Positions 18,721-44,190 of a DNA stretch of 64,000 nucleotides are shown here, piece by piece. Made by a program: the position numbers and the translations under genes. Origin of the DNA: Deltaproteobacteria bacterium (GTDB taxonomy: Bacteria > Myxococcota_A > UBA9160 > PR03); contig JANNKU010000149.1 of the NCBI GenBank assembly GCA_031396445.1, forward strand, positions 30,975-94,974, read 5' to 3'. The notes beneath the pieces are model-generated. The model worked only from the letters and a program-made list of their open reading frames with translations. It had not been told where the DNA came from and made no database searches. Position 1 is the stretch's first letter; every line of letters starts with the position of its first letter.

Positions 18721-18758
18721 GCGAGTCTCCCGGCGACGTTCACGGCGCGCGCATCCTA

Positions 18759-24402: not shown

Positions 24403-27400
24403 ATGACTTGCACGGCCTGCGGCCACGCCAATCCCGTGCGGACGAAGTTCTGCTCCGCGTGCGGAGCGCCTGCCGCCGCACGTTGTGGGAGCTGCGGCAG
24501 CGAACTTCCGGCTGGCGTGAACTTCTGCGGCGAATGCGGCGCGAAGGTCGCGGGAGCGCCGAGAGCCTCGCCCGACCGCTCGCCGCGCGACTACACGCCG
24601 CGTCACCTCGCCGACAAGATCCTGCAATCGAAGTCGGCGCTCGAAGGCGAGCGCAAGCAGGTCACCGTGCTCTTCGCCGACGTGAAGGGCTCGATGGAAC
24701 TCGCCGAGCACCTCGACCCCGAAGAGTGGCACCGCATCCTCGAGCGCTTCTTCGAGATCCTCACCGAAGGCGTCCACCGCTTCGAAGGCACCGTCAACCA
24801 GTACACCGGCGACGGGATCATGGCGCTCTTCGGCGCGCCGATCGCGCACGAGGATCACGCACAGCGCGCCTGCTACGCGGCGCTGCACCTGCGCGACGCG
24901 TTGCGTGGCTACGCAGACGAGCTGCGACGCACGGCGGGGCTCAGCTTGTCGACGCGCATCGGCATCAACTCCGGCGAGGTGGTCGTCGGCAAGATCGGCG
25001 ACGACCTGCGCATGGACTACACCGCGCAAGGACAGACGGTCGGCCTCGCGCAGCGCATGGAGCAGTGCGCCGCTGCCGACAGCAGCTACTTGACGGCGCA
25101 CACCGCTCGACTCGTCGAAGGCTACTTCCAGGTTCGCGATCTCGGTGACTTCGAGCTGAAGGGAGTTTCCGCACCGCTGCGCGTCTACGAGCTGCAAGGC
25201 GTCGGCGCGCTGCGCACGCGGCTCGACTCCTCGCGTTCGCGCGGTTTCTCGAAGTTCGTCGGCCGCGATCGCGAGATGGCGAGTCTTGAGAGCGCGCTCG
25301 ACGCGGCGATCGCGGGACACGGGCAGGTGGTGGGCGTCGTGGCCGATGCGGGCACCGGCAAGAGCCGCCTCTGCCTCGAGTTCGTCGAGCGCTGCCGCGC
25401 GCGCGGCATCCGCGTGAACGAGGCCCACTGCCCGGCGCACGGCAAGACGGTTCCGTATCTGCCGCTGCTCGAGATGCTGCGCGACATCTTCGGTATCGAA
25501 GCACGCGACAGCGATCACGAGGCGCGCCGCAAGATCGCCGGCGAACTGATGCTGCTCGACGAGAGCTTCCAGACGCTGCTGCCGATCTTGTTCGAGTTCA
25601 TGGGCGTCGCAGACCCGGCGAAGCCCGCGCCGCCGATGAGCCCGGAAGGTCGCCAGCAAAAGCTCTTCGCATTTGTGCGTCACCTGGTGCAGGCGCGCAG
25701 CGAACGCGAGCCGGCGGTGCTGCTGCTCGACGACCTGCACTGGATCGACCCGGGCAGCGACGCGTTCCTCGCGCACTCGGTCGAAGCCGCGGCGCAGACG
25801 CGCACACTGTGGCTGGTGAACTTCCGGCCGGAGTATCACGCCGATTGGATGAGCAAGTCATTCTACCAGCAGCTTCCGCTGCGACCGCTCGGCGCCGAAG
25901 CGATCGCCGCGCTGCTCGCGGATCTGCTCGGCAACGATGTGTCGGTCGCGGCGCTACCCGCGCGGATCCACGAGCGCACCGGCGGCAATCCGTTCTTCAT
26001 CGAGGAGATCGTGCAGTCGCTGGTCGAGAACGGGAGTCTCGTCGGAACAAAGGGTGCCTACCGACTGGCGACCGCCGCCGACGCGCTCGAACTGCCGAGC
26101 ACCGTGCAGAGCGTGCTCGCCGCGCGCCTCGATCGACTGCCCGAGCGCGAGAAGCGACTGCTGCAAACGGCGTCGGTACTCGGCAAGGAGTTCTCCGGCG
26201 CGCTGCTCGAAAGTGTCGTCGCGACGTCCGGACGCCATGGGATCGGCGACGCCGAACTCGCCGATTCCCTCGCTGCGCTCGCGCGCGCCGAGTTCATTTT
26301 CGAGGCATCGCTCTATCCCGAGGTCGAGTACGCGTTCAAGCATCCGCTGACGCAGGAGGTCGCGTACAAGTCGCAGCTCGGGGCGCGACGCGCCGAGCTA
26401 CACGCAGCCGTCGCGCGCGCGATCGAGCAACTACACGCCGACAAACTCGACGAGCGCGCCGCGCTACTCGCGTATCACTGGGAGCAGGCGGGCGAGGCGC
26501 TGACGGCGGCGCAGTGGCACGCGCGCGCGGCCGGCGTCGCCGGCTTCGATTCTCCGGTGGAAGCCGTGCGACACTGGGAAAGCGTCTGGGAGATCCTTCA
26601 GGCCGCGCCAGCCTCGGACGAGGGCGTGGCGCTGCGACTGCGCGCGGCGGGCGAGCTGCTGAACTTCGGCTGGCGCGTGGGCATGACGCACGAGCGCGCC
26701 GCCCAGATCTTCGGCGAGGGAAAGGCGCTCGCCATCGAACGCGGCGACGTCCGCGAGCAGGTGCGCCTCCACAACGCACTCGCGTTGATCCATGCCTCGC
26801 GTGGGGATCCGCGGCGAGCCATCGCGCTCTTCGAAGAGTCCGTCGTGCTGGCGGATGCGACCGGCGATCCCGAGCTGCGGTGGTCGGCGCGAACCGCCTT
26901 CGACTTCACGCTCTGGCTGGTCGGGGATCTCGACCGCGCACAGCGGATGAACGACGAGCAGATCGCGCTCGGCGAAGTCGATCCCGCGCTCGGGATCGCG
27001 ACGGTCGGACTCAGCACCGCCGACTCCCTCTGGCACCGAGGGGTGATCCTGAGGGATCTCGGCCGCTTTCAAGAAGCGGCCGCAGCGTTCCAGCGTGCCG
27101 ACGAGCGAGCGCTGCGCTTCGGCGAGAACGAGATGGCGAGCTGGATCGAATTCATGCGGGCGGACACTCTCGAGCGTGCCGGCGACACATCGGGAGCGCT
27201 GTCGATCGCCCGGCGCGCGATCGAGTCCGCCGAGAAGATCGGCAGCGTGCTCGGCCGCGTTGGGGCCCACGCCAGCTACGGGATGGCTTGCGTCTTGGCC
27301 GAGCAGTGGCAGAGCGCCCGAGAGAGCCTCGACTTCGCGCTGGAACTGGGTCGCGCCAAGCACGTAGGCCTCTTTTTCGAGCCCTACTTCGTGGCAGCGC

Positions 27401-27786
27401 TCGCCGAGGCGCATCTCGGCCTCGGCGACGAGCCGCGCGCGCGACAGGTCGCCGAGGAAGCGCACGAGATCGCGTTGCGCGCGCAGATGCTGGTTGCCGA
27501 CGTGCGCGCGCTGCTCGCCGGCGTCCGCGTGCGGCTGACGCTCGATGGCGTAGATGCGCGCGAGCAGATCGAGTCCACGCTCGATCGCGCGCTCGCGCTC
27601 GTGCGCTCGACCGGCGCGCGTTCGTTCGAGCCGCAGATCCACGTCGAGCGCGCGCGACTCGCGGGCCTGCTCTCCGACGCGGTCGGCCGCGAGCAGTGGT
27701 TGCGCGAGGCGCATCGCCTCTTCACCGAGATGGGCGCGACGGGGCACGCCGAGCGCGTGGCTCTGCTGTTGGCGTCGCCGCGATGA
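24403..27786 (+). CDS. Double zinc-ribbon / class III adenylate-guanylate cyclase / STAND P-loop NTPase / TPR protein (paralog 1)
   Basis: Begins MTCTACGHANPVRTKFCSACG...CGSCGSELPAGVNFCGECGA. The cyclase core is ERKQVTVLFADVKGS...YTGDGIMALFGAP...GINSGEVVVGKIG. Walker A is ADAGTGKSRL, and LLLDDLHWID is also present. The C-terminal roughly 450 aa are helical repeats. Confidence 0.93.
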   Translation: MTCTACGHANPVRTKFCSACGAPAAARCGSCGSELPAGVNFCGECGAKVAGAPRASPDRSPRDYTPRHLADKILQSKSALEGERKQVTVLFADVKGSMELAEHLDPEEWHRILERFFEILTEGVHRFEGTVNQYTGDGIMALFGAPIAHEDHAQRACYAALHLRDALRGYADELRRTAGLSLSTRIGINSGEVVVGKIGDDLRMDYTAQGQTVGLAQRMEQCAAADSSYLTAHTARLVEGYFQVRDLGDFELKGVSAPLRVYELQGVGALRTRLDSSRSRGFSKFVGRDREMASLESALDAAIAGHGQVVGVVADAGTGKSRLCLEFVERCRARGIRVNEAHCPAHGKTVPYLPLLEMLRDIFGIEARDSDHEARRKIAGELMLLDESFQTLLPILFEFMGVADPAKPAPPMSPEGRQQKLFAFVRHLVQARSEREPAVLLLDDLHWIDPGSDAFLAHSVEAAAQTRTLWLVNFRPEYHADWMSKSFYQQLPLRPLGAEAIAALLADLLGNDVSVAALPARIHERTGGNPFFIEEIVQSLVENGSLVGTKGAYRLATAADALELPSTVQSVLAARLDRLPEREKRLLQTASVLGKEFSGALLESVVATSGRHGIGDAELADSLAALARAEFIFEASLYPEVEYAFKHPLTQEVAYKSQLGARRAELHAAVARAIEQLHADKLDERAALLAYHWEQAGEALTAAQWHARAAGVAGFDSPVEAVRHWESVWEILQAAPASDEGVALRLRAAGELLNFGWRVGMTHERAAQIFGEGKALAIERGDVREQVRLHNALALIHASRGDPRRAIALFEESVVLADATGDPELRWSARTAFDFTLWLVGDLDRAQRMNDEQIALGEVDPALGIATVGLSTADSLWHRGVILRDLGRFQEAAAAFQRADERALRFGENEMASWIEFMRADTLERAGDTSGALSIARRAIESAEKIGSVLGRVGAHASYGMACVLAEQWQSARESLDFALELGRAKHVGLFFEPYFVAALAEAHLGLGDEPRARQVAEEAHEIALRAQMLVADVRALLAGVRVRLTLDGVDAREQIESTLDRALALVRSTGARSFEPQIHVERARLAGLLSDAVGREQWLREAHRLFTEMGATGHAERVALLLASPR

Positions 27787-28112
27787 ATCTGCTCGACGTC
27801 GTCCGCGAGGTCCGGCGCCACCTCGAAGAGAACGGCCGCTTGTCGCTGCGCATGTTGCAACGGCAATTCGAGCTCGACGACGCTGCGCTGGAGGAAGTCG
27901 TCGAGGAGCTGGTCGACGTGCAGCGCGTCGCGCGCCGCGAAGAGAACGCGCTCGCCTGGGTCGCATCGACTCCGCCCGCGAACCTCGCGCCGCCCGAACG
28001 CGATCCGCGCTCCTACACCCCGAAGCACCTCGCCGAGAAGATCCTGCAATCCAAGTCCGCGCTGGAGGGCGAGCGGAAGCAGGCCAGTGCCGCGCTAGGT
28101 TGGCGCCGATAG
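27783..28112 (+). pseudogene. 5' fragment of a fourth cyclase-STAND paralog (wHTH-type N-terminus), truncated exactly at the start of the cyclase domain
   Basis: The ATG overlaps the paralog 1 stop (ATGA). MNLLDVVREVRRHLEENGRLSLRMLQRQF...DPRSYTPKHLAEKILQSKSALEGERKQ aligns colinearly with the N-terminus of paralog 2. Homology ends after nt 28083 and the frame then reads ASAALGWRR-stop. Confidence 0.75.
28002..28083 (+). repeat. 82-nt conserved linker repeat (copy A), shared with 30157-30238
   Basis: By eye alignment 76 of 82 nt are identical to copy B, and all differences fall at codon third positions. It encodes DPRSYTPKHLAEKILQSKSALEGERKQ. Confidence 0.85.
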
Positions 28113-28121
28113 GAGCCTGCA

Positions 28122-28541
28122 ATGCGATCCCTCGATGAATCGATCGAGCGCGCGGTGGCGATTCTCTCCGGAGAGCCGCGCGTGCGAGTCGTGTACCTCT
28201 TCGGCTCCGCAGCGCGCCCCGGCTCCATCCCGCCGCGCGACCTCGATCTCGCCGTCTGCGCCCGCCCGCCGCTATCGCTTCCCGAGCTGCTCCAGCTCCA
28301 GGGCCGCGCGCAAGAGGCGATCCACTTGCCGCTGGACCTGGTGAGCCTCGACGACGCTCCGATCGTCCTCGCACACGAGATCATCGAGGGTGGGCGCTGC
28401 CTCTACACCCGATCGCCCGACGACGAAACGGAGTTGGTGACGCGCACGCGGATGCGCTGGTGGGACTGGCTGCCCGTGCGCGAGCGCCAGTGGCAGGCGA
28501 GCGGCGAGCGTCTGGAGGATCGCGTTGGTTCTTCGGCCTGA
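28122..28541 (+). CDS. MNT-type nucleotidyltransferase (type VII TA antitoxin-like)
   Basis: The sequence YLFGSAARPGSIPPRDLDLAV carries the GSxxR...DxD NTase signature. The gene overlaps the downstream HEPN-like ORF. Confidence 0.85.
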   Translation: MRSLDESIERAVAILSGEPRVRVVYLFGSAARPGSIPPRDLDLAVCARPPLSLPELLQLQGRAQEAIHLPLDLVSLDDAPIVLAHEIIEGGRCLYTRSPDDETELVTRTRMRWWDWLPVRERQWQASGERLEDRVGSSA

Positions 28542-28854
28542 GTCCGTACGCGAGCGCCTGCTGCGGCTCGAGGAAGTTCTCTCGCGCCTCGAAGAGCTCC
28601 GGCGCGAAGGCGTTGATCCGCGCGGCGACTTCCGGCAGGCGTGGCTCGCTGAACGCGGCCTACAGCTGGCTGCCGAGATCGCGCTCGACATCGGGAACCA
28701 CATCCTGCCGCGACCGCGCAGGCATGGGCGGATCAATGCGTCGATCTCGCGTCACCATTCGGCTTCATCGACACCAATCCGGATCGGAGCGACGGGGTTC
28801 CCTGGTACGTCGGTGAGAACGCCTACGGTTCCAGTGGAGGCGCGACCGGCGTAG
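28525..28854 (+). pseudogene. HEPN/DUF86 (HepT-like) toxin gene, 3'-truncated
   Basis: TTG start. The first roughly 70 aa (ERLLRLEEVLSRLEELR...ERGLQLAAEIALDIGNHIL) look like DUF86. The sequence then degenerates near nt 28735, before the catalytic Rx4-6H motif would occur. Confidence 0.6.
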
Positions 28855-29162
28855 CGGCCGTCGCGCTCTGGGCCGCCGAGGTGCAGAGCTACGACTATGA
28901 CACCAATACCTGTTCGTCGGTCTGCAGCCACTACACGCAGATCGTGTGGGCCGCGAGCGAATTCGTCGGCTGCAGGATCTCCTCGTGTCCGGGTCTCAGC
29001 TTCGGGAACTCCGTGGTGTGCAACTACGGACCTGGCCGCAATACCGGCGGCAGACCCTACGCGGTGCCCGAGCCCTCGAGCGCAGCTTGCGCTGCCGGAG
29101 CAATCGCCGCGCTCGCGGCGCTCTGTCGGAGGCGGCGGGCGGTAACGCGTCAATTGACCTGA
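28791..29162 (+). pseudogene. 5'-truncated CAP/SCP/PR-1-like domain gene with PEP-CTERM tail
   Basis: My translation in the frame of ORF 28881 gives ...PWYVGENAYGSSGGATGVAAVALWAAEVQSYDYDTNTCSSVCSHYTQIVWAASEFVGC...VVCNYGPGRN, then VPEPSSAACAAGAIAALAALCRRRR. The N-terminal half of the CAP domain, the signal peptide and a start codon are all missing. Confidence 0.65.
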
Positions 29163-29190
29163 GTAGCTACACGAGGCTACTTTGGTTTCG

Positions 29191-29481
29191 ATGAAGGCGG
29201 TCGCCGTCAAAGAACTCAAGAACCGGCTCAGCGCCTATCTGCGCGAGGTGAAGAACGGCGAGGTCGTACTGGTGACCGATCGCGGCGTGGTCGTTGCCGA
29301 ACTCCGGCAGCCGAGCGCAGGCGCAGTGTTGGGCACGCACGACCAGATCCTGGAACGCCTCTGTGCGGAAGGCGTTCTTGCGCCGGGACTGCCCCAGGAT
29401 CCGCGCGCCTATCGGCCCTCGCCGCTGGGAGGCGCCGTCGCAAGCAGCGATCTCCTCGACGCCGAGCGCGGCGCGCGGTGA
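29191..29481 (+). CDS. Phd/YefM-family antitoxin
   Basis: MKAVAVKELKNRLSAYLREVKNGEVVLVTDRGVVVAEL is the classic Phd N-terminal fold. The stop overlaps the VapC start (GTGA). Confidence 0.8.
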   Translation: MKAVAVKELKNRLSAYLREVKNGEVVLVTDRGVVVAELRQPSAGAVLGTHDQILERLCAEGVLAPGLPQDPRAYRPSPLGGAVASSDLLDAERGAR

Positions 29482-29909
29482 CGCTTTACGCGGAGACGAG
29501 CGCTGTGTTGCGTTGGCTCTTTGCCGAGGACGGCGGCGAGGCGATCCGAGCGGCGCTCGCTGCGGCGGAGAAAGTCACTTCGTCGCGCCTGGCGTTGATC
29601 GAGACGCGCCGCGTAGTGCGACGCGCAGAGCGCGAGGGGCGCATCACCGCGGCGCAAAGCGCCGACCTGCGCGCCCTCTTCGCCCAAGCCGTCTCTACTT
29701 GGGCAATCGTCGAGATCTCGGAAGCGATCGCGCGACGCGCCGAAGAAGGGTTTCCGAACGAGCCCGTGCGCACGCTGGACGCCATCCACCTCGCGAGCGC
29801 CCTCTTCCTGCGCGAGTCGTTCCCCGCCCTCGTCATGCTGACCGCCGACGAACGCGTCCGCGCCAACGCCGTGCTCCTCGGTTTTTCGGCTGAGGTGCCT
29901 CGCGTATGA
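29478..29909 (+). CDS. vapC: PIN-domain ribonuclease toxin VapC
   Basis: The acidic quartet context is LYAETSAV (a variant first acidic position), SSRLALIETRRV, LDAIHLASAL and LTADERV. Confidence 0.82.
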   Translation: MTLYAETSAVLRWLFAEDGGEAIRAALAAAEKVTSSRLALIETRRVVRRAEREGRITAAQSADLRALFAQAVSTWAIVEISEAIARRAEEGFPNEPVRTLDAIHLASALFLRESFPALVMLTADERVRANAVLLGFSAEVPRV

Positions 29910-29931
29910 AAAATCTGCGCGTACCGGCGCT

Positions 29932-32900
29932 TTGAGCTTCGTCGCCAAACTCCAACGCGCCCGGGACGTCCTCGAACAACAGGGGCGTCTCTCCGTCCGC
30001 GCGCTGGCCCGCGAACTCGACCTCGCCGGCGACGAGCTCGAGGAGCTGATCAGCGAGCTGGTCGACGTGCAACGCGTGGCACTCCGCGAGGACGCCGTCC
30101 TCGTCTGGGCGAACCCTCGGGCCGCCGCAGATCCCGCGCCTCGGCGCCCGGCACCCGATCCGCGCTCGTACACCCCGAAGCACCTCGCCGAGAAGATCCT
30201 GCAATCGAAGTCCGCGCTCGAAGGAGAGCGCAAGCAGGTGACCGTCTTGTTCGCGGACGTGAAGGGTTCGCTGGAACTCGCCGAGCAACTCGACGCCGAA
30301 GTGTGGCACCGCATTCTCGAGCGCTTCTTCGAGATCCTCGCCGAAGGCGTCCACCGCTTCGAAGGCACCGTCAACCAATACACCGGCGACGGCATCATGG
30401 CGCTCTTCGGCGCACCCATATCTCATGAGGATCACGCGCAGCGCGCTTGCTACGCGGCGCTGCACCTGCGCGACACGCTGAAGACCTACGCCGATGCGCT
30501 GCGCATCGAGCATGGGCTCAACTTCTCGGTGCGCATGGGCATCAACTCGGGGGAGGTCGTGGTCGGCAAGATCGGCGACGACTTGCGCATGGACTACACC
30601 GCACAGGGCCACACGGTCGGGCTCGCGCAACGCATGGAGACGCTCGCCGAGTCGGGCAAAGCGCTGCTCGCGGCCAGCACGATCGACATCGTCCATGGCT
30701 ATTTTGCGCTGCGCGATCTCGGCGCGATGAATGTGAAAGGCCTCGATGCGCCCGTGCGAGTCGCCGAGCTCGAAGGCGTCGGGCGGATGCGCACGCGCCT
30801 CGATCGATCGCGGGCGCGTGGGCTCTCGAAGTTCGTCGGCCGTGACGAAGAGATGGGACGCCTCGAGACGGCGCTGCGCCGTGCACTCGACGGCGACGGG
30901 CAGGTGATCGGCGTGATGGCCGAAGCCGGCTCCGGGAAATCGCGGCTCTGCTTCGAGTTTCTCGAGCGCTGTCGATCGCAGGGCATCACCGTGCGCACCA
31001 CGACTGGTGTGCCTCACGGCCGCGCGGTGCCGCTGCAGCCGATCCTCGAGTTCTACCGCGAGATCTTCGGGATCGAGCAAAGCGACAGCGACGTGCAAGC
31101 GCGCCAGAAGATTGCCGGCAGCATCGCGCAGGCGGCGCCCGAAGAACTCGGCTGGCTCCCGCTGCTCTTCGACTTCATGCGCGTGCCCGACCCCGCGCAG
31201 CCGGCCCCCGATCTTTCGCCCGACGAGCGGATGCGCGCATTGATCGCGCTGCTGCGCCGCATCACCGCGGCGCGCAGTCGGCGCGAGCCCGCGGTGCTGG
31301 TCTTCGAAGATCTGCATTGGATCGACGCCGACACCGAAGTGATCATCGAAGGCTTCGTCGATGTCGCGGCGGGCACCCGCACGCTGATCCTGCTCAACTT
31401 CCGTCCCGAGTACCGCGCGAGCTGGGTCGGGCGCACGCACTACCAGCAGATCGCGCTGCGCCCGCTCGATGCCGCCGCCGCGGGCGAACTGCTCGGCGAT
31501 TGGCTCGGCGCGCACGCTTCCCTCGCCGGCTTCGTCGAACTCGTCTGCAAGCGCACCGGCGGAAATCCCTTCTTCATGGAGGAAGTGGTGCAAGCGCAGA
31601 TCGAGTCGGGCGCGCTCGTCGGCGCGCGCGGGCATTTCGAGCTGGCGCACCCGATCGACAGCATCGAGGTGCCGGCGAGTGTGCAGAGCCTGCTCGCGGC
31701 GCGCATCGATCGCCTCGACGAGGCGAGCAAGCGCCTGTTGCAGACCGTGGCGGTAGTCGGTGATGAGGTGGCCGAGACGCTGCTCGAACGCGTGGCCGAA
31801 CTCGATCGCGATGCGCTGCGCAGCACCGTACGCTCTTTGGTGCAGAGCGAGTTTCTCTACGAGGCGTCGCTCTACCCGGAGAGCGAGTACGCGTTCAAGC
31901 ATCCGCTCACGCGCGAGGTGGCGTATGCATCGCTGCTGCGCGAGCGGCGGCACGCGCTGCACGCAGCGGTGGCAACGACGCTCGAAGCGCTCGCCGGCGA
32001 TGCGGCCGATCAACGCGCGCCGCTGCTCGCGCACCACTGGGAACAGGCGGGGCGCCCGCTCGAATCCGCGCGCTGGCAAGCGCGCACCGCGGCGCGGCTC
32101 GGCCTGAACGCGGGGGAGTCGATCTTCCACTGGCGCAAGGTGACGGAGCTGCTCGCTGCGGAGAGCGGCACACCGGAGGCGCGCGCGCTGCTCGGTCAGG
32201 CGCGTTCCCGATTGGTGTACGCCGCGGGGCGCAGCGCGGCACCGGAGGCCGAGGTGGCGACACTTTTCGCGGAAGCGCGTCGCGAGCTCGGCGAAGCGGA
32301 CTCGCGCGAACTAGCCTGGACGCTCGCCACCTACGGCATCGTGCGCAACGCGGCTGGCAACGTCGAAGAGGCGCGGCGTCTGAATGCCGAGGCCCTGGCG
32401 ATGGCACGGCGCCTAGAGGATCTCCCTCTGCTCGCAGCGACGCTGGCAGCCGGCATCGCGATCACGCCCGCGTCCGAGTTTCCGGAGCAATGCGCGCAGC
32501 TGATCACCGAGGTCGGGAGCCTGAGCGCCAAAGATCCGTCGCTCGGCGAGGAACTGCTCGGGTTTCGTCCCTCGGCCGCAGCCAACACGGCTTCCCTCTT
32601 TGCGCACTTCCGCTTCGGCCGCGGTGGCGAGATGGAGCCGCTGCTGGCCGCATGGCGGAGCAGCGTCGGCGATAGCCGCAACGCGATTGATCAGGTCTGG
32701 CTTCACAACGGCTTCACCTCGGTGCGCGCGGCGCGGGGCGACGTGAACGGCGCACTCGAACACGGTCGCCAGACCCTCGAGTGGGCGATGCAGTCGCAGA
32801 ACCTCTTCATTCGGGTGGTTGGACATTCCGCGCGGGGCCGAGGGCTACTCGCTGCGGGTCGGTTCGACGAGGCGCTCGAGTACCTCGAACCGGCGTTGAT

Positions 32901-33330
32901 GCTCGCAGTGGACCGCGGCGTCGCCCGAGGCTTTGCAGTCGCCGTTTGCCTTCCGCTCCTCGTCGAGATCCAGCTGCGGCGTGGCGACATCGCCGCCGCA
33001 CGCGCCGCGGCCGAGCGCGGCATCGAGATTGCCCGCGCCATGGGATACCGACACGCAGAAGCGTCCAACGGGATTTCGCTGGCGCGAGCGCTGGTCGCTG
33101 GCGGCGACGCCGCGGGCGCAGAGGCGACGCTCGCATCCGCGGCGGAGTCCGCAAGCGCGTTGAACGCGCGCGATCTGCTGCCGCGCGTCGAGGAAGCGCG
33201 CGCCGAGATCTCGCGACACCGCAACGACGACGCCGGCTGCGAGCATGCTCTGCGCGCCGCGGCGCGGCTGCACCGCGAAAACGGCGAGGAATGGCTCGCG
33301 ACGCAGGCCGAGGCGAAGATCACCTCGTGA
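29932..33330 (+). CDS. wHTH-like N-domain / class III cyclase / STAND P-loop NTPase / TPR protein (paralog 2)
   Basis: The TTG start is supported by colinear alignment with the 27783 fragment. The cyclase core is ERKQVTVLFADVKGS...YTGDGIMALFGAP, Walker A is AEAGSGKSRL, LVFEDLHWID is present, and a long helical-repeat C-terminus follows. Confidence 0.92.
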   Translation: MSFVAKLQRARDVLEQQGRLSVRALARELDLAGDELEELISELVDVQRVALREDAVLVWANPRAAADPAPRRPAPDPRSYTPKHLAEKILQSKSALEGERKQVTVLFADVKGSLELAEQLDAEVWHRILERFFEILAEGVHRFEGTVNQYTGDGIMALFGAPISHEDHAQRACYAALHLRDTLKTYADALRIEHGLNFSVRMGINSGEVVVGKIGDDLRMDYTAQGHTVGLAQRMETLAESGKALLAASTIDIVHGYFALRDLGAMNVKGLDAPVRVAELEGVGRMRTRLDRSRARGLSKFVGRDEEMGRLETALRRALDGDGQVIGVMAEAGSGKSRLCFEFLERCRSQGITVRTTTGVPHGRAVPLQPILEFYREIFGIEQSDSDVQARQKIAGSIAQAAPEELGWLPLLFDFMRVPDPAQPAPDLSPDERMRALIALLRRITAARSRREPAVLVFEDLHWIDADTEVIIEGFVDVAAGTRTLILLNFRPEYRASWVGRTHYQQIALRPLDAAAAGELLGDWLGAHASLAGFVELVCKRTGGNPFFMEEVVQAQIESGALVGARGHFELAHPIDSIEVPASVQSLLAARIDRLDEASKRLLQTVAVVGDEVAETLLERVAELDRDALRSTVRSLVQSEFLYEASLYPESEYAFKHPLTREVAYASLLRERRHALHAAVATTLEALAGDAADQRAPLLAHHWEQAGRPLESARWQARTAARLGLNAGESIFHWRKVTELLAAESGTPEARALLGQARSRLVYAAGRSAAPEAEVATLFAEARRELGEADSRELAWTLATYGIVRNAAGNVEEARRLNAEALAMARRLEDLPLLAATLAAGIAITPASEFPEQCAQLITEVGSLSAKDPSLGEELLGFRPSAAANTASLFAHFRFGRGGEMEPLLAAWRSSVGDSRNAIDQVWLHNGFTSVRAARGDVNGALEHGRQTLEWAMQSQNLFIRVVGHSARGRGLLAAGRFDEALEYLEPALMLAVDRGVARGFAVAVCLPLLVEIQLRRGDIAAARAAAERGIEIARAMGYRHAEASNGISLARALVAGGDAAGAEATLASAAESASALNARDLLPRVEEARAEISRHRNDDAGCEHALRAAARLHRENGEEWLATQAEAKITS
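30157..30238 (+). repeat. 82-nt conserved linker repeat (copy B)
   Basis: See copy A at 28002-28083. Confidence 0.85.
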
Positions 33331-38179: not shown

Positions 38180-39829
38180 ATGCGCGATGGCCTGCTCTCC
38201 TTCACTCGTCGCCAGCTCGGATGGTCGGTGCTGCTCGGACTGCTCTTGCTCAGCCCGGCATCGAATGTACTGGCGCAGACCAACACGCGATTCGTCGTGA
38301 TCAACCAGACCGGTCACTCCGACGCGCAGGTCCACATGAAATTCCTCGGCCCCGAGATCGGTGCGTCCGCGACCGCGCAGACCTATGGCCCAGGTCATCC
38401 GCTCCACACCGGAAGTACGAGTTCGTCGTACTCCTACAGCCTGCAGGAAATGCGCGCGACGGTTCCGAACACGCCATATGCGAGCATTTCGGTTCCGACC
38501 TTCGCGATCAACGATTTCCTCGGTGGCAGGATCTACTTCAGCATCGGCTTTCAACTCGAGTCCGTGGATCCGCCCGCTGCCGGAACGATCGGCGCTGCCG
38601 ACTACAACGTCGTCTACCACTACGTCGAGACCTACACCGGGGGATCCGGCGCCAACAACATCGACGTCTCGTACGTGGACTTCGTCGGCATCCCGATCGA
38701 CATGGCCGCGCGCAACGGCAATGGGACGCTCTACTCGTATCCGAGCGGCAAGAACCCGCAGTCGTCCGCGGCGGGATCGACGATGTTCGACCACCTGATC
38801 ACGAGCGGCGTTCCGGCGTCGGCGATTGCTCCGGCAGTGACCGGTGGCACCGCGCGGATTTCGTCGCCGTCTCTTGGTGGTGTCACCGGCTATCACGATT
38901 GGACCGCGCTCTTCACCTACCTGAAGAACACGTGGACATCGCCCATCTCCGTTGCCAGCTACAAGGTTCCAGTGGGTGAGCCGCTGTCCACCGTACTCTT
39001 CGGTTACAGCGGCGGCGGCATCCCGGTCGATCCTTTTGATCCGCTCTTCCTGATCGAGCAGGACTACAGCTTCACCGCGACCGTCATGGACGACTTGAAT
39101 CCCGGCGGCGCCAACGCGCGGATCCCGGGTCTCGCAGGCATCGCGGGTGTCAAGCTGCATGGCGCGGGCGGAACCTATGGCGCAACGACGGGCACCGGCG
39201 CCTTCGACATCTACATCCAGCAATCCGACCTCGATGCACCGACGGGAATCTACGGAAACAACCCTGCCTACACGGTGGATTGGACCGGGCGTCCAGTGCT
39301 CGATGGCGGACCGATCGCGTTCCCCGCGAGCACCGGCATCGTCGATGATCTCACCGGCCGCATCGTCGGCGATCTGCTCGCCGGCATCACCTTCGGGTGG
39401 ACCGGCAACGCCACGAACATTGCGAATCACGCGACGGCGACCAGCTTCGACCTTCCGACCGATATCACGGAAGAGCGGATCGGCGACCTCGGCACCGGCA
39501 AATACTTCTACTTGCTCTCGCTGCAGGACTCGACCGCAAAGTTGGCGGAGTGGTTCGGCAGCGGCATCTCGGCGACGCCGGACTTCTACGACACCTATGG
39601 CAACGCCTTCGCCGCCGATACCACCGCCTACACCATGCCGTTTGGCGATCGCCTGCAGGGAAGCGTGACGCCGTCCATCTGGTGGGATGCCGCCGGCCTG
39701 GCCGGTCAGGATGGCTATCTCGAAATCACGCTGCTGCCGGGTGCGTACGCTGCGCCGGAACCCGCATCGGTGTCGCTCCTGCTGAGCGCGTGGCTGGCTC
39801 TCGCCGCGATTGCGAGACGCGCGCGCTAG
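38180..39829 (+). CDS. Secreted GH64/beta-1,3-glucanase-like protein with PEP-CTERM anchor
   Basis: Signal peptide MRDGLLSFTRRQLGWSVLLGLLLLSPASNVLAQ. RFVVINQTG, GGRIYFSIG and YHYVETY...IDVSYVDFVGIPID recall GH64/thaumatin-like glucanases, although this is unverified. The C-terminus APEPASVSLLLSAWLALAAIARRAR is a PEP-CTERM signal. Confidence 0.68.
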   Translation: MRDGLLSFTRRQLGWSVLLGLLLLSPASNVLAQTNTRFVVINQTGHSDAQVHMKFLGPEIGASATAQTYGPGHPLHTGSTSSSYSYSLQEMRATVPNTPYASISVPTFAINDFLGGRIYFSIGFQLESVDPPAAGTIGAADYNVVYHYVETYTGGSGANNIDVSYVDFVGIPIDMAARNGNGTLYSYPSGKNPQSSAAGSTMFDHLITSGVPASAIAPAVTGGTARISSPSLGGVTGYHDWTALFTYLKNTWTSPISVASYKVPVGEPLSTVLFGYSGGGIPVDPFDPLFLIEQDYSFTATVMDDLNPGGANARIPGLAGIAGVKLHGAGGTYGATTGTGAFDIYIQQSDLDAPTGIYGNNPAYTVDWTGRPVLDGGPIAFPASTGIVDDLTGRIVGDLLAGITFGWTGNATNIANHATATSFDLPTDITEERIGDLGTGKYFYLLSLQDSTAKLAEWFGSGISATPDFYDTYGNAFAADTTAYTMPFGDRLQGSVTPSIWWDAAGLAGQDGYLEITLLPGAYAAPEPASVSLLLSAWLALAAIARRAR

Positions 39830-40734
39830 TTGCCGAGTGCGCGGGCCGCTCTGCGCAGGCTCGCGACCGGCACACCGAGACGCCGACACGCGTCGGAGGG
39901 CGGACTCGTGCGCGGCACGACGCGCTCACCGAGTCGCCCGAGCGCGCGGATCACGCTGCCTTCGAATCGCCGCAAGCCGTAGCGTGCGTCGAGCCCGAGG
40001 ATCTCGCGCGTCCACGGCGGCGTGATCTCCACCGAAGCGCGAATCAGCATCGACTGGAGCCAGCGCAACGGGCCAGGGAAGATCGGCGTGCGGTGCAGGA
40101 TCTCGAGAAACTCGAAGACGATCGCCGAACGCTCGAGCTTGGGTCGCATCGCCGCGAACTGTGCTTCGAGCTCGGCGACCGACGCGGGCGCGCCGACGGC
40201 GCCGTAGAGACGCGCTGCCGGAGCGCCTTCTGCGTAGAAGCGATCGCGCGCCGCGTTCGAGAGCGGCCGAACGAATGCGCAGTACGCCTCGAGGAAGCCG
40301 AAGCTGGCGGTGGCCTGCACCCAATCGAGCAGCTCCGGATCGTCGGCGCGATACGAGACGCCATCCGGTGTCGTTCCCGACACGCGCGCATGCATGCGCG
40401 AGACGCCTGCAATCATCTTCTCAGCGACGCTGCGCGCGCCGTAGACCGTCACCATCGCGGCGAGCCCCGTGCGTTCCATGCGCGTCAGCGGATCGGTGCG
40501 AAAGCTGGTGTGATCCCAGACGCCGGAGCGCACGCGCGGCTCGGCGAGTTCGAGAATCACCGCCGTCACGCCGCCGACGAAGAGCGAGACGGGGTTGCGG
40601 AACACCTGCCACGCTACGCCGTCGTGCGGAGCCAGCGACGCCTCGCCGGCGGGCTGCGTGAAATCGACCGCGACGCCCGTCTCGGGCCGCATCGATGCGC
40701 GCGCTAGCGCCTGGCGGAATGTCGATGCGCTCAT
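39826..40734 (-). CDS. DUF2236 / MpaB-family oxygenase-like protein
   Basis: Starts at MSASTFRQAL (CAT at 40732-40734). Motifs include AVILELAEPRVRSGVWDHTSFRTDPLTRMERT and MHARVSGTTPDGVSYRADDPELLDWV. Its stop overlaps the convergent GH64-like stop in a CTAG. Confidence 0.8.
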   Translation of the reverse strand: MSASTFRQALARASMRPETGVAVDFTQPAGEASLAPHDGVAWQVFRNPVSLFVGGVTAVILELAEPRVRSGVWDHTSFRTDPLTRMERTGLAAMVTVYGARSVAEKMIAGVSRMHARVSGTTPDGVSYRADDPELLDWVQATASFGFLEAYCAFVRPLSNAARDRFYAEGAPAARLYGAVGAPASVAELEAQFAAMRPKLERSAIVFEFLEILHRTPIFPGPLRWLQSMLIRASVEITPPWTREILGLDARYGLRRFEGSVIRALGRLGERVVPRTSPPSDACRRLGVPVASLRRAARALGN

Positions 40735-40824
40735 CGTGCGCAGAGTATCAGCGAAGAGCCGAGCCGCACCCTTCGATTGTTTTGCGCAGCCGCCTCGCGA
40801 ATCGACGGTAGAGTGCCGGGCGCC

Positions 40825-43800
40825 ATGAACTGCAACGCCTGCGGCCACGCGAATCCCGAGCGAACGAAGTTCTGTCTCGAATGCGGAACGCCCGTCGCCA
40901 TGCGGTGTAAAAGCTGCGGCAGCGCGTTGCCGCCGGCTGCGAAGTTCTGCGGAGAGTGCGGAGCGAAGACCATCGCGGCGGACGCCACCGCGCCACTGGT
41001 GTCCGCCGCCGCACGCTCGCCCCTCGACTACACGCCGCGCCATCTCGCCGAGCGGATCTTGCAATCGCGCTCCGCCGTCGAAGGCGAGCGCAAGCAGGTG
41101 ACCGTACTGTTCGCGGACGTGAAGGGATCGCTGTCACTCGCCGAGCAGATCGGCGCCGAAGCCTGGCACGCGATTCTCGAACGCTTCTTCGAGATTCTCG
41201 CCGACGGCGTGCACCGCTTCGAAGGCACCGTCAACCAATACACGGGCGACGGCGTCATGGCGCTGTTCGGCGCGCCGATCGCGCATGAGGATCACGCACA
41301 GCGCGCCTGTTACGCGGCGTTGCACCTGCTCGAACGCCTGCGCGAATTCGCGCGCGCGGTGCGGCGCGAGCACGGCCTCGATTTCGCGACGCGCATCGGC
41401 ATGAACTCCGGCGAAGTCGTGGTGGGCAAGATCGGCGACGACCTGCGCATGGACTACACCGCACAGGGCCACACGGTGGGCCTCGCCCAGCGCGTCGAAT
41501 CGCTGGCGGAAGCGGATGCGTGTTTTTTGTCGCAGGCCACGGCCGATCTCGTGACGGGATTCTTCGCGCTCGAAGATCTCGGCGACTTCCGCGTCAAGGG
41601 CAGCGCGGAGCCATTGCATGTATTCCGACTCGCGGGCGTTGGCAGCGCGCGCAATCGCTTCGATGTGTCGCGCTCCCGCGGACTGTCGCGCTTCGTCGGT
41701 CGCGCGTCCGAGGTGCGCACGCTCGAAGCCGCGCTCGCGGCGGCGCGCGCCGGCCACGGCGCCGTGGTCGGCGTCGTCGCGCAGGCCGGCACCGGCAAGA
41801 GCAGGCTCTGCTACGAGTTCCTCGAGTCGTGTCGCGCGGCGGGCTTCAATGTTCACGAAGGTCGCGCCGTGGCGCACGGCAAGAGCATCCCGCTGATCCC
41901 GATCCTCGAGATCTTCCGCTCCTACTTCGCGATCGGCGATCGCGACGATGATCGCTTGGCGCGCGAGAAGATCGCCGGCCGGCTGTTGCTGCTCGACGAA
42001 GCCTTCCGCGACGTGCTGCCGGTGCTCTTCGATTTCCTCGGCGTGGCCGACCCCACCGTGCCGCTGCCGCGCATGGAGGCGGAGGCGCGCCAGCGCCAAC
42101 TGCAAAGTGTGTCGCGGCGGCTGCTGCAGCAATCGACCGCCGAGCGACCCGGCCTGATGATGATCGAAGACCTGCACTGGCTCGACGGCGCGAGCGAAGC
42201 GTGGCTGCGCGATTGGGTCGATGCCGTCTCCGGTACGCACGGCCTGCTGCTCGTGAACTACCGCCCCGAATATCGAGCTGAGTGGATGCAGCGCTCGCAC
42301 GTGCAGCAGATCGCGCTCGCGCCGCTCGGCGCCGAGGCGATCCGCGAGTTGCTCGGCGATCTGCTCGGCGCCGATCCGAGCACCGCGGGGCTGGCGGACG
42401 CCATCTACACACGCAGCGGTGGCAACCCGTTCTTTGCAGAAGAAATCGTGCGCTCGCTGATCGAGTCCGCCCATCTCGAGGGCAAGCGCGGTGGCTACCG
42501 GCTCGTGACGCCAATCGACAAGCTGGCCGTACCGAACTCCGTGCAGGCGCTGCTCGCGGCGCGCATCGACCGGCTGCCCGAGCGCGAGAAGCGCGTGCTG
42601 CAAACCGCAGCGGTGATCGGCAAGGATTTCCGCGGGCCGATCCTCGAGCAGGTGATCGATCTCACGTCGAACGAGTTGGCCGAGAGTCTCGCGGCGCTGC
42701 GCAATGCGGAGTTCGTCTACGAGGAGTCGCTCTACCCGATCGCCGCGTATTCGTTCAAGCACCCGCTGACGCAGGAGGTGGCGCTCGCGTCGTTGCTCCG
42801 CGAGCGGCGACGCGCGGCGCATCTGGCGGTTGCAGGCGCGACCGAGAGCTTCGACGCGGACAGCCTCGACGAGCAGGCTGCGCTGCTCGCGCATCACTAC
42901 GGCGAGGCGGGGCGTCCGCTCGACGCCGCACGGTGGCACGCGCGCGCGGCTGGCTTCATCGCTCCGAGCGACTCCGCCGAAGCAGCGCGGCATTGGAATT
43001 GCGCTCGCGAGCTGTTGCGCGAGGCGCCGGACGAGCCGGCGGCCGCGAGCCTTGGCGCTTCGGTGTGTCGTGCGCTCCTCGCGGTGAGCGTTCGCTTCGG
43101 ACTCACATCGGAAGACGCCCGCCAGATCTTCGAGGAGGGTCTCCGCTGGGCCGAGGCCACCGGCGAGCCGCTCGACACAGCACTGATGCACCAGGGGCTG
43201 TCGGTCCACGAAGTTGCGAATCTGCAGATCGACTCCGCGCTCGAGCACGCCGCCGCGTTCGAACGGGTGGTGCGCGTCGCGCCGGACGCGGAGCTACGCG
43301 CGATGGCGCACTGGCCTTCGCTCGCGCCACTGCTGGTGCGCGGAGATCTCGCCGCGTTGCATGCGCGTGCTGCCGAGCAGATCGAGTGGACACGCGAGCA
43401 TCTCGAATGGGGCTTGCGCGACTGGGGCTTCACCATCCACGTCGGCGCGCTGCTCGAGCTGAGTCGCGCCGAGAGCTTCGACGGCTCGCTGGTCCGCGCG
43501 CGCGTAATTCTCGAAAGTGGCGCCGAGATCTCGCGCAGCGTCGGCGACCGCGTATTCGAGGGAATGTGCCTCGGTTGGATCGCCACCATCGCCTGTCGCG
43601 CCGGCGAGCCCGAGCAAGGCCTGGTTGTGGCGCAGCGCTACGTCGAACACACCGAGCGATTCTTCTCCGGGTTCCGCGCCGCCGCCTACGCGCAGCTCGC
43701 CGAAAACCTGCTGCTGACCGGACAGACCGCGACGGCGATCGCGACGATCGAGCATGCCGAGTCGCTCGGCGATTCGAGCAAGCTGTCGCAGTTGACTCTG

Positions 43801-44190
43801 TTGCGGACGGCGGCACAGGTGCGACTCGCCAACGGGGAGATCGCGCGCGCACGCGCCGCGGCCGAGCTCGCCTTCGCTCGCTCGCTCGATGCCGGCGCGC
43901 GCCTTCTCGCGGTGGAAGCCGCACTCGCGCTGTCGTCCATCATTCGCGCGCAAGGCGACACGAGTGAAGTCGCGCGCATCGAAGCCATCCTCGCGACCGC
44001 CGATCGGCTGATCGCGGAGACCGGCGCGCGCAACCTCGCACCTCTGCTGCTGCTCGAACGCGTGGCGCTGCTCGCGCGTCCCGAGGACGCTTCTCTGCGT
44101 CGCGCACTGCTACAGCACGCGCACGACGACTTCGTTCGCATGGGCGCAACGGGCCATGTGCGGGAGATCGGGCGTATGCTGAACGCGTGA
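40825..44190 (+). CDS. Double zinc-ribbon / class III cyclase / STAND P-loop NTPase / TPR protein (paralog 3)
   Basis: Begins MNCNACGHANPERTKFCLECG...CKSCGSALPPAAKFCGECGA. It carries ERKQVTVLFADVKGS, YTGDGVMALFGAP, Walker A AQAGTGKSRL and MMIEDLHWLD, followed by a helical-repeat C-terminus. Confidence 0.92.
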   Translation: MNCNACGHANPERTKFCLECGTPVAMRCKSCGSALPPAAKFCGECGAKTIAADATAPLVSAAARSPLDYTPRHLAERILQSRSAVEGERKQVTVLFADVKGSLSLAEQIGAEAWHAILERFFEILADGVHRFEGTVNQYTGDGVMALFGAPIAHEDHAQRACYAALHLLERLREFARAVRREHGLDFATRIGMNSGEVVVGKIGDDLRMDYTAQGHTVGLAQRVESLAEADACFLSQATADLVTGFFALEDLGDFRVKGSAEPLHVFRLAGVGSARNRFDVSRSRGLSRFVGRASEVRTLEAALAAARAGHGAVVGVVAQAGTGKSRLCYEFLESCRAAGFNVHEGRAVAHGKSIPLIPILEIFRSYFAIGDRDDDRLAREKIAGRLLLLDEAFRDVLPVLFDFLGVADPTVPLPRMEAEARQRQLQSVSRRLLQQSTAERPGLMMIEDLHWLDGASEAWLRDWVDAVSGTHGLLLVNYRPEYRAEWMQRSHVQQIALAPLGAEAIRELLGDLLGADPSTAGLADAIYTRSGGNPFFAEEIVRSLIESAHLEGKRGGYRLVTPIDKLAVPNSVQALLAARIDRLPEREKRVLQTAAVIGKDFRGPILEQVIDLTSNELAESLAALRNAEFVYEESLYPIAAYSFKHPLTQEVALASLLRERRRAAHLAVAGATESFDADSLDEQAALLAHHYGEAGRPLDAARWHARAAGFIAPSDSAEAARHWNCARELLREAPDEPAAASLGASVCRALLAVSVRFGLTSEDARQIFEEGLRWAEATGEPLDTALMHQGLSVHEVANLQIDSALEHAAAFERVVRVAPDAELRAMAHWPSLAPLLVRGDLAALHARAAEQIEWTREHLEWGLRDWGFTIHVGALLELSRAESFDGSLVRARVILESGAEISRSVGDRVFEGMCLGWIATIACRAGEPEQGLVVAQRYVEHTERFFSGFRAAAYAQLAENLLLTGQTATAIATIEHAESLGDSSKLSQLTLLRTAAQVRLANGEIARARAAAELAFARSLDAGARLLAVEAALALSSIIRAQGDTSEVARIEAILATADRLIAETGARNLAPLLLLERVALLARPEDASLRRALLQHAHDDFVRMGATGHVREIGRMLNA

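Follow-up and report, generated by a model that had tools for sequence, protein, structure and literature searches.

The stretch of DNA analysed here (hereafter, the window) comprises 64,000 nucleotides of contig JANNKU010000149.1, from a Deltaproteobacteria bacterium (assembly GCA_031396445.1), and contains three giant paralogous genes, P1, P2 and P3, whose products combine an N-terminal head, a class III nucleotidyl cyclase, a predicted STAND-type NTPase and a C-terminal arm predicted to consist of tetratricopeptide repeats (TPR). These paralogs are an old, largely syntenic array under purifying selection. In functional terms, they are considered, with moderate confidence, to be independently maintained members of a large cytoplasmic family in which a STAND switch, together with its TPR arm, controls a class III cyclase.

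Architecture and fold of the three giant proteins

The G+C content of the window is 64-70% and, in consequence, raw lists of open reading frames (ORFs) are full of spurious frames; real genes were picked by their third-position GC (GC3). P1, P2 and P3 are all found on the + strand where an initial annotation of this DNA had located them, with GC3 values of the coding type (0.80-0.83). Their parts are the following:

24403-27786, + strand: P1, 1127 amino acids (aa); double zinc-ribbon head (aa 3-46) followed by a disordered tether
P1, aa 64-86 (nt 24592-24660): helix YTPRHLADKIL...GERKQ
P1, aa 84-264 (nt 24652-25194): class III cyclase
P1, aa 284-466 (nt 25252-25800): STAND NTPase (AAA_16)
P1, aa ~471-700: helical and winged-helix subdomains
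P1, aa 701-1127 (nt 26503-27783): TPR arm
29932-33330, + strand: P2, 1132 aa, TTG start; predicted winged-helix head aa 1-59 (nt 29932-30108)
P2, aa ~60-79: disordered tether; aa 80-102: YTPKHLAEKIL helix
P2, aa 100-270: cyclase; aa 300-480: STAND NTPase; aa ~713-1132: TPR arm
40825-44190, + strand: P3, 1121 aa; double zinc-ribbon head and divergent alpha-helical arm (Pfam and alignment)
P3, aa 89-262: cyclase; aa 289-470: STAND NTPase

The core that the initial annotation had recognised in the three genes (i.e., a cyclase, a P-loop STAND NTPase and a TPR arm) was borne out by the domain searches that it had recommended. Pfam Guanylate_cyc was matched by P1, P2 and P3 with E = 2.6e-22, 3.3e-22 and 7.2e-21, respectively (75-79.7 bits vs a cut-off of 21.9), and AAA_16 with E = 8.3e-26, 6.3e-21 and 5.1e-20 (73-92 bits). 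The double zinc ribbon (DZR) was found in P1 (E = 1.9e-9) and P3 (E = 5.5e-11). Regarding the arm, TPR_12 and TPR_2 were matched in P1, TPR_MalT and TPR_12 stayed under the cut-off in P2, and the P3 arm gave no Pfam TPR match, yet it can be aligned with the arms of P1 and P2. The three proteins match one another with E = 0 and 47-54% aa identity; hence, chance is excluded as an explanation for their likeness. The motifs VTVLFADVKGS, YTGDG[IV]MALFGAP, AGxGKSRL, DDLHW[IL]D and YTP[RK]HLAE/DKILQSKSALEGERKQ were all found in the paralogs, and the last of them, described from the outset as a nearly invariant linker, is present in every copy. A tblastn search of the whole 64 kb window revealed no copy besides P1-P3 and a fragment at ~27.8-28.1 kb.

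Since a sequence search of the NTPase-TPR part against the PDB gave nothing at E <= 0.01, a fold search was needed. With the AlphaFold2 model of P2 (pLDDT 87.1, pTM 0.79), Foldseek retrieved the STAND-TPR protein 6MFV (E = 1e-12), followed by MalT (8BOB, E = 1.1e-7), Apaf-1 and CED-4. In the model, the cyclase domain superposes on CyaB with a TM-score of 0.86 and a root-mean-square deviation of 2.4 A, around 24 helices are arranged as an alpha-solenoid (aa 670-1131), and the head of the full-length protein is connected through a tether (residues ~47-81) that is modelled with low confidence and is probably disordered. Furthermore, in 101 sequences (P2 numbering here and below) the STAND motifs show little or no variation: Walker A GxGKS(R) (G333/G335/K336/S337), the Walker B ED of ED-LHW-D (D460), the GxP motif of GGNPFF (G544/P546) and the winged-helix His H657 (FKHPL); R491 (NFRPEY), a candidate sensor-1 Arg, is invariant. 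As judged from these motifs, with P-loop, Walker B, GxP and winged-helix His all present, the NTPase of P1-P3 is predicted to be a STAND NTPase of the MalT/Apaf-1 type. Likewise, the Pfam TPR matches and the modelled alpha-solenoid point to a C-terminal repeat sensor domain. No HTH/GerE, LuxR or SARP domain was detected by Pfam in P1-P3, where the arm extends to the C-terminus.

The family is very large: homologues, of which the search yielded at least 8,000, go by the name 'class 3 adenylate cyclase/TPR repeat protein', and some of them are from cultured Cupriavidus, Burkholderia, Rhizobium and Sinorhizobium, with hundreds of copies in replicons of these genera.

Age of the array and exchange of heads

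The cyclase is the most conserved part of the giants. Between P1-P3, aa identity amounts to 72-76% in the cyclase, 43-60% in the NTPase plus helical/winged-helix subdomains and 22-31% in the TPR arm, and differences at fourfold-degenerate sites are 0.27-0.60 in every segment vs ~0.64 at saturation for this GC3. The conservation of the cyclase is thus due to selection; the possibility that its core was recently duplicated in place or homogenised by gene conversion is ruled out. In a neighbour-joining tree of 188 non-identical 640-aa cores (p-distances, own code, no bootstraps), P1, P2 and P3 belong to separate clades that diverge deeply, each of them being closer to genes of other genomes than to the other two: the nearest core is 92% identical for P1 (homologue P0002), 85% for P2 (a gene in GCA_016178705) and 67-68% for P3 (several genes), and the cores of P1-P3 are 57-61% identical to one another. 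The orthologues of P1 are P0002 (86%) and P0004 (75%).

Against orthologues, the ratio of nonsynonymous to synonymous substitution rates (dN/dS) is 0.06-0.11 in the cyclase, 0.06-0.20 in the nucleotide-binding domain, 0.11-0.31 in the helical/winged-helix subdomains, 0.27-0.33 in the TPR arm and ~0.4 in the zinc-ribbon head. Because dN/dS is below 1 in every homologous domain, all three genes are taken to be functional. The TPR arm has evolved at three to five times the rate of the cyclase; even so, values of 0.27-0.33 rule out domain-wide positive selection on it.

Tandem arrays of this kind are also found in relatives. The nearest genomes correspond to uncultured Candidatus Binatia, which appear under older labels of metagenome-assembled genomes (MAGs) as 'Deltaproteobacteria' or 'Myxococcales'. 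Among the fetched loci (designated by L numbers) of at least 18 kb, 12/31 have two or more copies and 8/31 have three or more; same-strand tandem arrays are common, and for several MAGs the loci are spread over many different contigs. In GCA_016178705, at least four copies lie within 23 kb; orthologues of P1 and P2 are among them, a Phd/PIN toxin-antitoxin (TA) pair is present as well, and neighbouring copies overlap by 4 bp. In L003/L004 (88.5% nucleotide identity over P1), a Phd/PIN pair like the one at 29182-29909 of the window lies within 74 bp after the P1 orthologue; orthologues of this pair (75-89% aa identity) follow the P1 orthologue both there and in L005, and another pair is located inside the L001 array. 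Since relatives hold similar tandem arrays, the cluster must have been inherited, with individual copies being gained and lost. The initial annotation had proposed a local expansion within a diversifying STAND sensor locus, and had named ancient paralogs syntenic across relatives as the observation that would speak against that idea. The paralog tree and the synteny largely give this picture: with fourfold-site differences of 0.27-0.60, deep separate clades, closer kin elsewhere, syntenic arrays in relatives and dN/dS below 1 throughout, neither the expansion nor the diversifying locus can be maintained.

Adjacent giants overlap by 4 bp at 27783-27786 of the window (ATGA), at 10001-10004 of L001 and at 6248-6251 of L003, an arrangement that would imply that different paralogs are co-transcribed and coupled in translation, and that they might assemble into mixed oligomers or cyclase heterodimers. 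PIN- or MNT-type TA modules of different families were observed at L001 21405-22028, L086 11932-12584, L088 20203-20616 and L003 17225-17679. The presence of TA modules at array ends or beside the P450 fusion gene described below could be a coincidence in TA-rich genomes, or else reflect a stabilising role. An array of three giants in tandem also makes up positions 3-8378 of L092 (IMG/VR UViG_3300047160_034655), a contig classed as viral in which no phage hallmark genes were detected.

Gene turnover within the array can be seen between P1 and P2, where the following features are found:

27783-28112, + strand: truncated fourth paralog, 109 aa; predicted winged-helix head, tether and YTPKHLAEKIL...GERKQ
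28122-28541, + strand: MNT-type nucleotidyltransferase (antitoxin-like), apparently complete (Pfam Polbeta, E = 6.2e-16)
28525-28854, + strand: HepT-like remnant (Pfam HepT-like, E = 0.0043, profile positions 2-50 of 120)
28881-29162, + strand: remaining 3' end of a gene for a secreted CAP/SCP-domain protein with PEP-CTERM tail, lacking the 5' part
29182-29481 and 29478-29909, + strand: Phd/YefM antitoxin and PIN/VapC toxin (Pfam), with a 4 bp overlap at 29478-29481

The truncated copy is real, and its coordinates are here corrected to 27783-28112. Its ATG overlaps the stop codon of P1 (ATGA), a Pro/Ala-rich tether is followed by the YTPKHLAEKILQSKSALEGERKQ segment, and the frame breaks right after GERKQ, with nine unrelated codons before a stop; its head is 63% identical to that of P2 (tblastn) and matches a FeoC-like winged helix (E = 1.9e-4). 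L052, a short contig from a 91% relative, is collinear through the 3' end of P1, the head and the linker (DNA ~93% identical up to ~28083), past which point L052 continues into an intact cyclase domain and the window into the MNT gene. Since L052 runs on into an intact domain, the copy in the window is a truncation. This fourth copy is therefore intact in L052, truncated in the window and absent in L003 (88% relative), i.e., local gene turnover exists. The rest of the segment (28113-29161) is a patchwork of the MNT gene, the 5' half of HepT and the 3' end of CAP/PEP-CTERM, with two apparent deletion junctions: (i) cyclase copy to MNT; and (ii) HepT 5' half to CAP/PEP-CTERM 3' end. The HepT-like remnant retains only the N-terminal half of the profile and its frame decays past 'GNHILP' (three-frame translation), and the CAP remnant covers profile positions 82-117 of 117 (E = 3.1e-6; PEP-CTERM E = 0.0015). 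Around the 27.8-29.2 kb segment, no tRNA, Rfam family or terminal repeats like those of insertion sequences (IS) were detected. At 29182-29909, the antitoxin is borderline (PhdYeFM_antitox, 29.6 bits vs a cut-off of 29.8) and PIN reaches 46 bits; an antitoxin gene overlapping a PIN toxin gene is, as predicted from sequence, a type II TA pair of the Phd/YefM-VapC layout. The interleaving of TA modules with the giants had been pointed out before and extends to the MNT gene with its decayed HepT (28122-28854).

Two types of heads can be distinguished, as had been proposed: (i) the zinc ribbon of P1 and P3; and (ii) the winged helix of P2 and the fragment, whose length is ~59 aa and not the ~50 aa initially given. 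No Pfam family reaches its cut-off on the P2 head, and FeoC matches weakly in 10/10 heads of this type (best E = 6.4e-5). Modelled alone, the P2 head (pLDDT 85) has an H1-b1-H2-H3-b2-b3 topology and superposes on winged-helix domains, DNA-binding and protein-binding alike, with TM-scores of 0.65-0.80, none of its Foldseek matches reaching E <= 1e-3. On the basis of the model and the FeoC matches, the heads of P2 and of the fragment are assigned as predicted winged-helix domains. In a library of 1.84 billion proteins, the head profile retrieved 3,266 cluster representatives, 542 of them at E <= 1e-10. Among the 150 best matches, the head is at or near residue 1 in most, and is fused only to class III cyclase-STAND proteins, or to fragments or frameshifted derivatives of them. 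It is spread over two cyclase-STAND subfamilies: one with the YTP linker and one (AERRQLTVMFCDLVGST...AQYLGDG...GDTxNxAARL) without it. The second subfamily (P0149, P0163, P0165, P0180, P0198, P0209 and others) retains the transition-state Asn of the cyclase.

Most family members carry the zinc ribbon, and TIGR03903, with the same body and a kinase head, represents a third head type. The head swapping initially proposed turned out to be more extensive than claimed. Parsimony on the 188-core tree gives at least 14 changes between zinc ribbon and winged helix, the cores of swapped-head pairs share up to 96% identity (P0020 vs L005), and the orthologue of P2 in GCA_016178705 (85% core identity) has a zinc-ribbon head. 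In three recent swaps, homology starts exactly at DPRxYTPKHLA. Moreover, the DNA of the YTPKHLA helix is the best conserved stretch between copies (92% over 53 nt, fragment vs P2), which makes it, to judge from the sequence, an obvious candidate substrate for recombination between neighbouring paralogs. Some metagenomic derivatives are of other kinds: P0121 has two winged-helix heads in tandem, P0190 has the head and linker fused to the post-NTPase region, and P0193 has the head fused to the start of the TPR arm, all of which would suggest frequent internal deletions or recombination.

Active site, P450 neighbour and proposed mechanism

When aligned to CyaB (3R5G), Cya2 (2W01) and CyaC (1WC0), the cyclases keep both metal Asp, the Arg and the class IIIb-type Thr; actually, the metal Asp D109 (FADVKGS) and D153 (YTGDG) and the catalytic Arg R234 are invariant in the 101 sequences. 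The substrate Lys position is occupied by Gln (NQYTGDG) and the Asp position by Thr (DYTAQG), so that the canonical substrate pair is absent, and the transition-state Asn position is occupied by Gly (TVGLAQR vs EVNLASR in CyaB), so that there is no Asn...Arg pair either. Known substrate pairs are Lys/Asp or Lys/Thr for ATP and Glu/Cys for GTP. The pair in P1-P3 is neither of the two, Lys/Asp or Glu/Cys, between which the initial annotation had expected to choose, but Gln/Thr, with a Thr of the class IIIb type. It had also stated that its idea would fail if catalytic residues were missing: Asn to Gly and Lys to Gln are indeed replaced family-wide, but the metal Asp and the Arg are kept. Gln/Thr/Gly is a subfamily signature, present in 108/120 close homologues and in 83/112 copies in the fetched loci. 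A homologue on the Cupriavidus basilensis plasmid pRK1-1 (L093 8815-12234, WP_081050230.1) has the same zinc-ribbon head and a YTP-type linker, with Lys, Asp and His instead; an IS66 element is located near it, and it offers a tractable model in a cultured organism. Given its Lys/Asp/His, loss of the Asn reaches beyond the Gln/Thr/Gly subfamily, at least to this homologue.

As for the linker, HMMER alignments to Rv1625c-type cyclases and GC-A begin at the Pro of YTP. In its pattern, P-x-x-[ILV]-A-x-[KR]-[IL], and in its spacing of 27 residues to the first metal Asp, the linker helix is a probable match to the cyclase-transducer element of class IIIa/b enzymes, more exactly to the C-terminal half of this element.

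A cyclic-nucleotide (cNMP)-binding protein is encoded near the giants, outside the 24403-44190 region covered by the initial annotation:

19898-21685, - strand: cytochrome P450 with a C-terminal cyclic-nucleotide-binding domain, 595 aa

Both domains are clear in Pfam (p450, E = 5.8e-24; cNMP_binding, E = 3.3e-15), and the heme-Cys motif FCLGASLAR and the cassette GERG...RSAT are present. The fusion belongs to a populous family: its 120 top matches are ~600 aa long, have both domains in 120/120 cases and bear no annotation beyond 'cytochrome P450'. Among them, the heme motif occurs in 110/120 and the phosphate-binding cassette GE...R[STA]AT in 119/120. Giants lie within 10 kb of the fusion in 7/10 independent loci: the window, L001 (fusion at 4646-6508), L042 (4732-6555), L084, L085, L088 and L089. 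They are directly downstream on the same strand in L001/L002, L085, L088 and L089, with gaps of 67-68 bp in L001 and L089, and the other flanking genes of the P450-fusion loci all differ. The giants near the fusion carry Gln/Thr/Gly in all cases in L001, L084 and L088, in 2/3 in L089 and in 1/2 in L042; the divergent giants in L085 are without this signature. Such linkage is a classical signature of functional coupling and, though an association only, makes the fusion a candidate receiver. L085 also encodes, at 16409-21842 and downstream of its P450/cNMP-binding gene, a 1965-aa product with cyclase, AAA_16 and SnoaL-like domains, and separate DZR-only and TPR-only ORFs in between may be split or decayed copies.

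The mechanism proposed for P1-P3 relies on this neighbourhood evidence for the receiver step and, for the other steps, on sequence, models and knowledge of related families. At rest, the protein would be monomeric and closed, with ADP bound and the TPR arm folded against the NTPase. A ligand would bind to the arm; with no more than 22-31% identity between the arms, this ligand probably differs from paralog to paralog. ADP would then be exchanged for ATP and the NTPase modules would oligomerise, bringing the cyclase domains together and turning synthesis on. Since class III cyclases form their active sites at the dimer interface and have no activity as monomers, induced proximity could act as the switch. 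The geometry of the dimer would be set by the near-invariant YTPKHLAEKIL...GERKQ helix, which aligns in register with the helix found just before the catalytic domain in receptor cyclases. The product would be a 3',5'-cyclic nucleotide, most likely cAMP, its identity being uncertain because the pocket has Gln, Thr and Gly for Lys, Asp and Asn. The head, on its 20-30 aa disordered tether, would serve as an exchangeable address or partner-binding tag, not as a rigid allosteric input, and the neighbouring P450/cNMP-binding fusion would be the likely local receiver. A bolder and rather doubtful extension is that the giants and the P450 fusion form one circuit, in which different arms and exchangeable heads feed one cyclic nucleotide that gates the P450 allosterically; given the family-specific Gln/Thr/Gly pocket, the nucleotide of this circuit may be non-canonical.

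Several observations weigh against these proposals. Regarding catalysis, loss of the transition-state Asn cuts kcat strongly in canonical enzymes, and this residue is replaced by Gly in ~90% of the subfamily and by His in a Cupriavidus homologue; the Gln/Thr pair, for its part, would predict no known specificity. The match between linker and cyclase-transducer element comes from the points where the alignments start and from the general motif pattern, and the P2 model, as a monomer, is uninformative on oligomers. Regarding the receiver, 3/10 P450-fusion loci are without giants, the genomes that carry the fusion also carry many copies of the giants (a background density for which the figure of 7/10 does not account), and in the window the P450 gene is inverted and is 2.7 kb and five other ORFs away from P1.

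The Asn and Lys replacements also suggest a different reading, i.e., that the domain is a pseudo-cyclase which no longer makes cNMP and serves the STAND scaffold as a nucleotide-binding or dimerisation module. Of the six positions that determine catalysis or specificity in canonical enzymes, two have changed throughout the family (Lys to Gln, Asn to Gly); the Asn-equivalent position varies in the wider family (G, H, W, A, N), and the GDG loop and the dimer-arm segment of the P2 cyclase are modelled with low confidence by AlphaFold. Nevertheless, low pLDDT at interface loops would be expected for a monomer model of an obligate dimer, both metal Asp, the Arg and the class IIIb-type Thr show little or no variation, no other part of the protein is as strongly constrained as the cyclase, and the cNMP-binding pocket of the conserved neighbour is intact. 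In addition, Gln at the substrate Lys position is presumably shared by Rv0386, also a cyclase-STAND protein. Rv0386 has been reported to be an active adenylyl cyclase (Castro et al., 2005, as cited in PMC4452763). A pseudo-cyclase is consequently judged unlikely.

Still less probable is an anti-phage or conflict system, in which Avs-like STAND receptors would recognise invader proteins with their TPR arms and use a PycC-related cyclase to make a messenger that activates a toxic effector, with the array, the variable arms, the swapped heads and the TA modules all reflecting an arms race. The combination of STAND and TPR is indeed the Avs/NLR design and the cyclase domain matches PycC models in PADLOC (E = 2.8e-22), but these matches score 73-77 bits, which is the generic Pfam cyclase score, and they are the only ones given by PADLOC, all on the cyclase domain, with no Avs, NLR or other model on the NTPase-TPR body; an Avs/AVAST assignment is thus not supported. 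Tandem arrays with divergent C-terminal arms, gene turnover, head swapping and the recurrence of TA modules beside arrays are compatible with defence; however, the paralogs are ancient, apparently vertically inherited and syntenic across relatives, the arm shows a dN/dS of ~0.3 and no domain-wide positive selection, and the neighbours are metabolic. No cNMP-binding effector with transmembrane or TIR domains is adjacent, the nearest cNMP-binding protein being a P450 with intact heme motifs. PHROG phrog_25255 (function unknown) matches the giants full length, yet relatives appear on only 2 of 2.9 million viral contigs, one of which is just the L092 array described above, and a recent systematic survey of STAND defence clades mentions no cyclase effectors (PMC13581612). 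Finally, a MalT/AfsR-like regulator, whose head would bind DNA and whose STAND oligomerisation would activate transcription with the cyclase as an accessory, is considered very improbable. PMC4452763 and PMC13581612 describe DNA-binding domains in the best-studied bacterial STAND proteins (MalT, GutR, AfsR, Rv0386-type 'Mclx'), and the P2 head fold resembles IclR, archaeal DNA-binding and Zalpha domains; but Foldseek is equally good with protein-binding winged helices (PCI, cullin WHB), the tethered head is at the opposite end from the helix-turn-helix (HTH) of MalT and Rv0386, and no LuxR or SARP domain was found by Pfam. Besides, most members carry a zinc ribbon that is freely exchanged with the winged helix, which argues against specific operator binding. 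A cyclase controlled by the STAND switch and TPR arm remains the preferred reading.

Other genes of the locus and relevance of the family

Between the P450 fusion and P1 (21721-23534 for the first two), the following genes were identified:

21721-22662, + strand: tandem-PAS protein (Pfam PAS_4, PAS, PAS_8)
22659-23534, + strand: metallo-beta-lactamase-fold hydrolase (Lactamase_B_2, E = 1.3e-21; THLHMDH motif), overlapping the PAS gene by 4 bp
23610-23840 and 23837-24364, + strand: small ORF and nucleotidyltransferase-like ORF, with a 4 bp overlap

The enzyme at 22659-23534 could be a phosphodiesterase. The 23610-24364 pair, with weak Pfam matches to DUF6036 (E = 2.5e-4) and AbiEii (E = 2.3e-3), is immediately upstream of P1 and represents a possible third TA-like pair. 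The genes between the paralogs encode a beta-lactamase-family hydrolase, a P450, a pyrroloquinoline quinone (PQQ) quinohaemoprotein dehydrogenase, a GH64-like PEP-CTERM protein and an MpaB-like oxygenase. Downstream, on the + strand, there are a secreted M4 thermolysin-like peptidase with thrombospondin type-3 (TSP3) repeats (44187-47426), another large secreted protein with TSP3 repeats (47576-49441) and an open frame of 1343 codons (49594-53622). The first and the last share a near-identical C-terminal module of ~85 aa (...DPDYNxDGRVGIPDFNxLRxQFG...DHNGDGVIGLPDFNVLRSYFG...GALP), which looks like a dockerin-like or sorting domain.

Among known systems, the mycobacterial proteins Mclx (Rv0386/Rv1358/Rv2488c), to which the giants had already been compared, do share the cyclase-STAND architecture, with an N-terminal class III cyclase domain directly before a STAND/AAA (NB-ARC-like) NTPase, and occur as multiple paralogs per genome, as here. 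But while Mclx proteins end in a LuxR HTH, P1-P3 end in a ~420 aa TPR arm without HTH and have, in addition, an N-terminal head, the YTPKHLA helix and Thr/Gly at the Asp/Asn positions. The body of P1-P3 aligns to positions 280-1135 of 1267 of the NCBIfam model TIGR03903 ('TOMM system kinase/cyclase fusion protein'), with 233-286 bits vs a cut-off of 705.75. Since the whole cyclase-NTPase-TPR body aligns, both have the same body plan with a different head, the Ser/Thr kinase head being absent in P1-P3; no TOMM biosynthesis genes were found near P1-P3. The best structural match to NTPase and arm is provided by PH0952 (6MFV) and MalT, with the same P-loop, Walker B, GxP and winged-helix His; they are without a cyclase effector, and the output of MalT goes through a LuxR DNA-binding domain. 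The closest solved catalytic domains are those of CyaB (Pseudomonas aeruginosa, 3R5G) and CyaC (Spirulina, 1WC0), with E = 1e-28, which share the Thr at the second substrate position, the metal Asp and the Arg, but have Lys and Asn where P1-P3 have Gln and Gly, and other regulatory domains. Regarding Pycsar, PycC is homologous to the cyclase of P1-P3 and a cNMP-binding protein is a conserved neighbour here too; nevertheless, there is no two-gene operon with a transmembrane or TIR effector, the cyclase is part of a 1,100 aa STAND-TPR protein, and the window encodes no cNMP-binding protein other than the P450 fusion, whose gene is 2.7 kb from P1 and on the other strand; this does not correspond to a Pycsar system.

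In the literature, no paper was found on the architecture DZR or winged helix-cyclase-AAA_16-TPR, with no ligand, product or target reported for the family, nor on the bacterial P450/cNMP-binding fusion. The cluster itself is ordinary, as an inherited array of old paralogs that is neither rapidly diversifying nor a defence locus. However, few multi-domain cyclases of soil bacteria are as numerous as the cyclase-STAND-TPR proteins, and the following aspects of the latter are new: (i) a subfamily-wide Gln/Thr/Gly pocket under strong constraint; (ii) heads that behave as interchangeable cassettes, recombined at one conserved helix with a defined boundary; (iii) a winged-helix head family above no Pfam cut-off; and (iv) a genomic partner that is conserved, namely a P450 whose cNMP-binding pocket is intact, so that the family's output can be tested directly. 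If the circuit proposed for the giants and the P450 fusion were true, it would represent second-messenger control of an oxidative enzyme at the protein level and would provide the first physiological output for the cyclase-STAND-TPR family.

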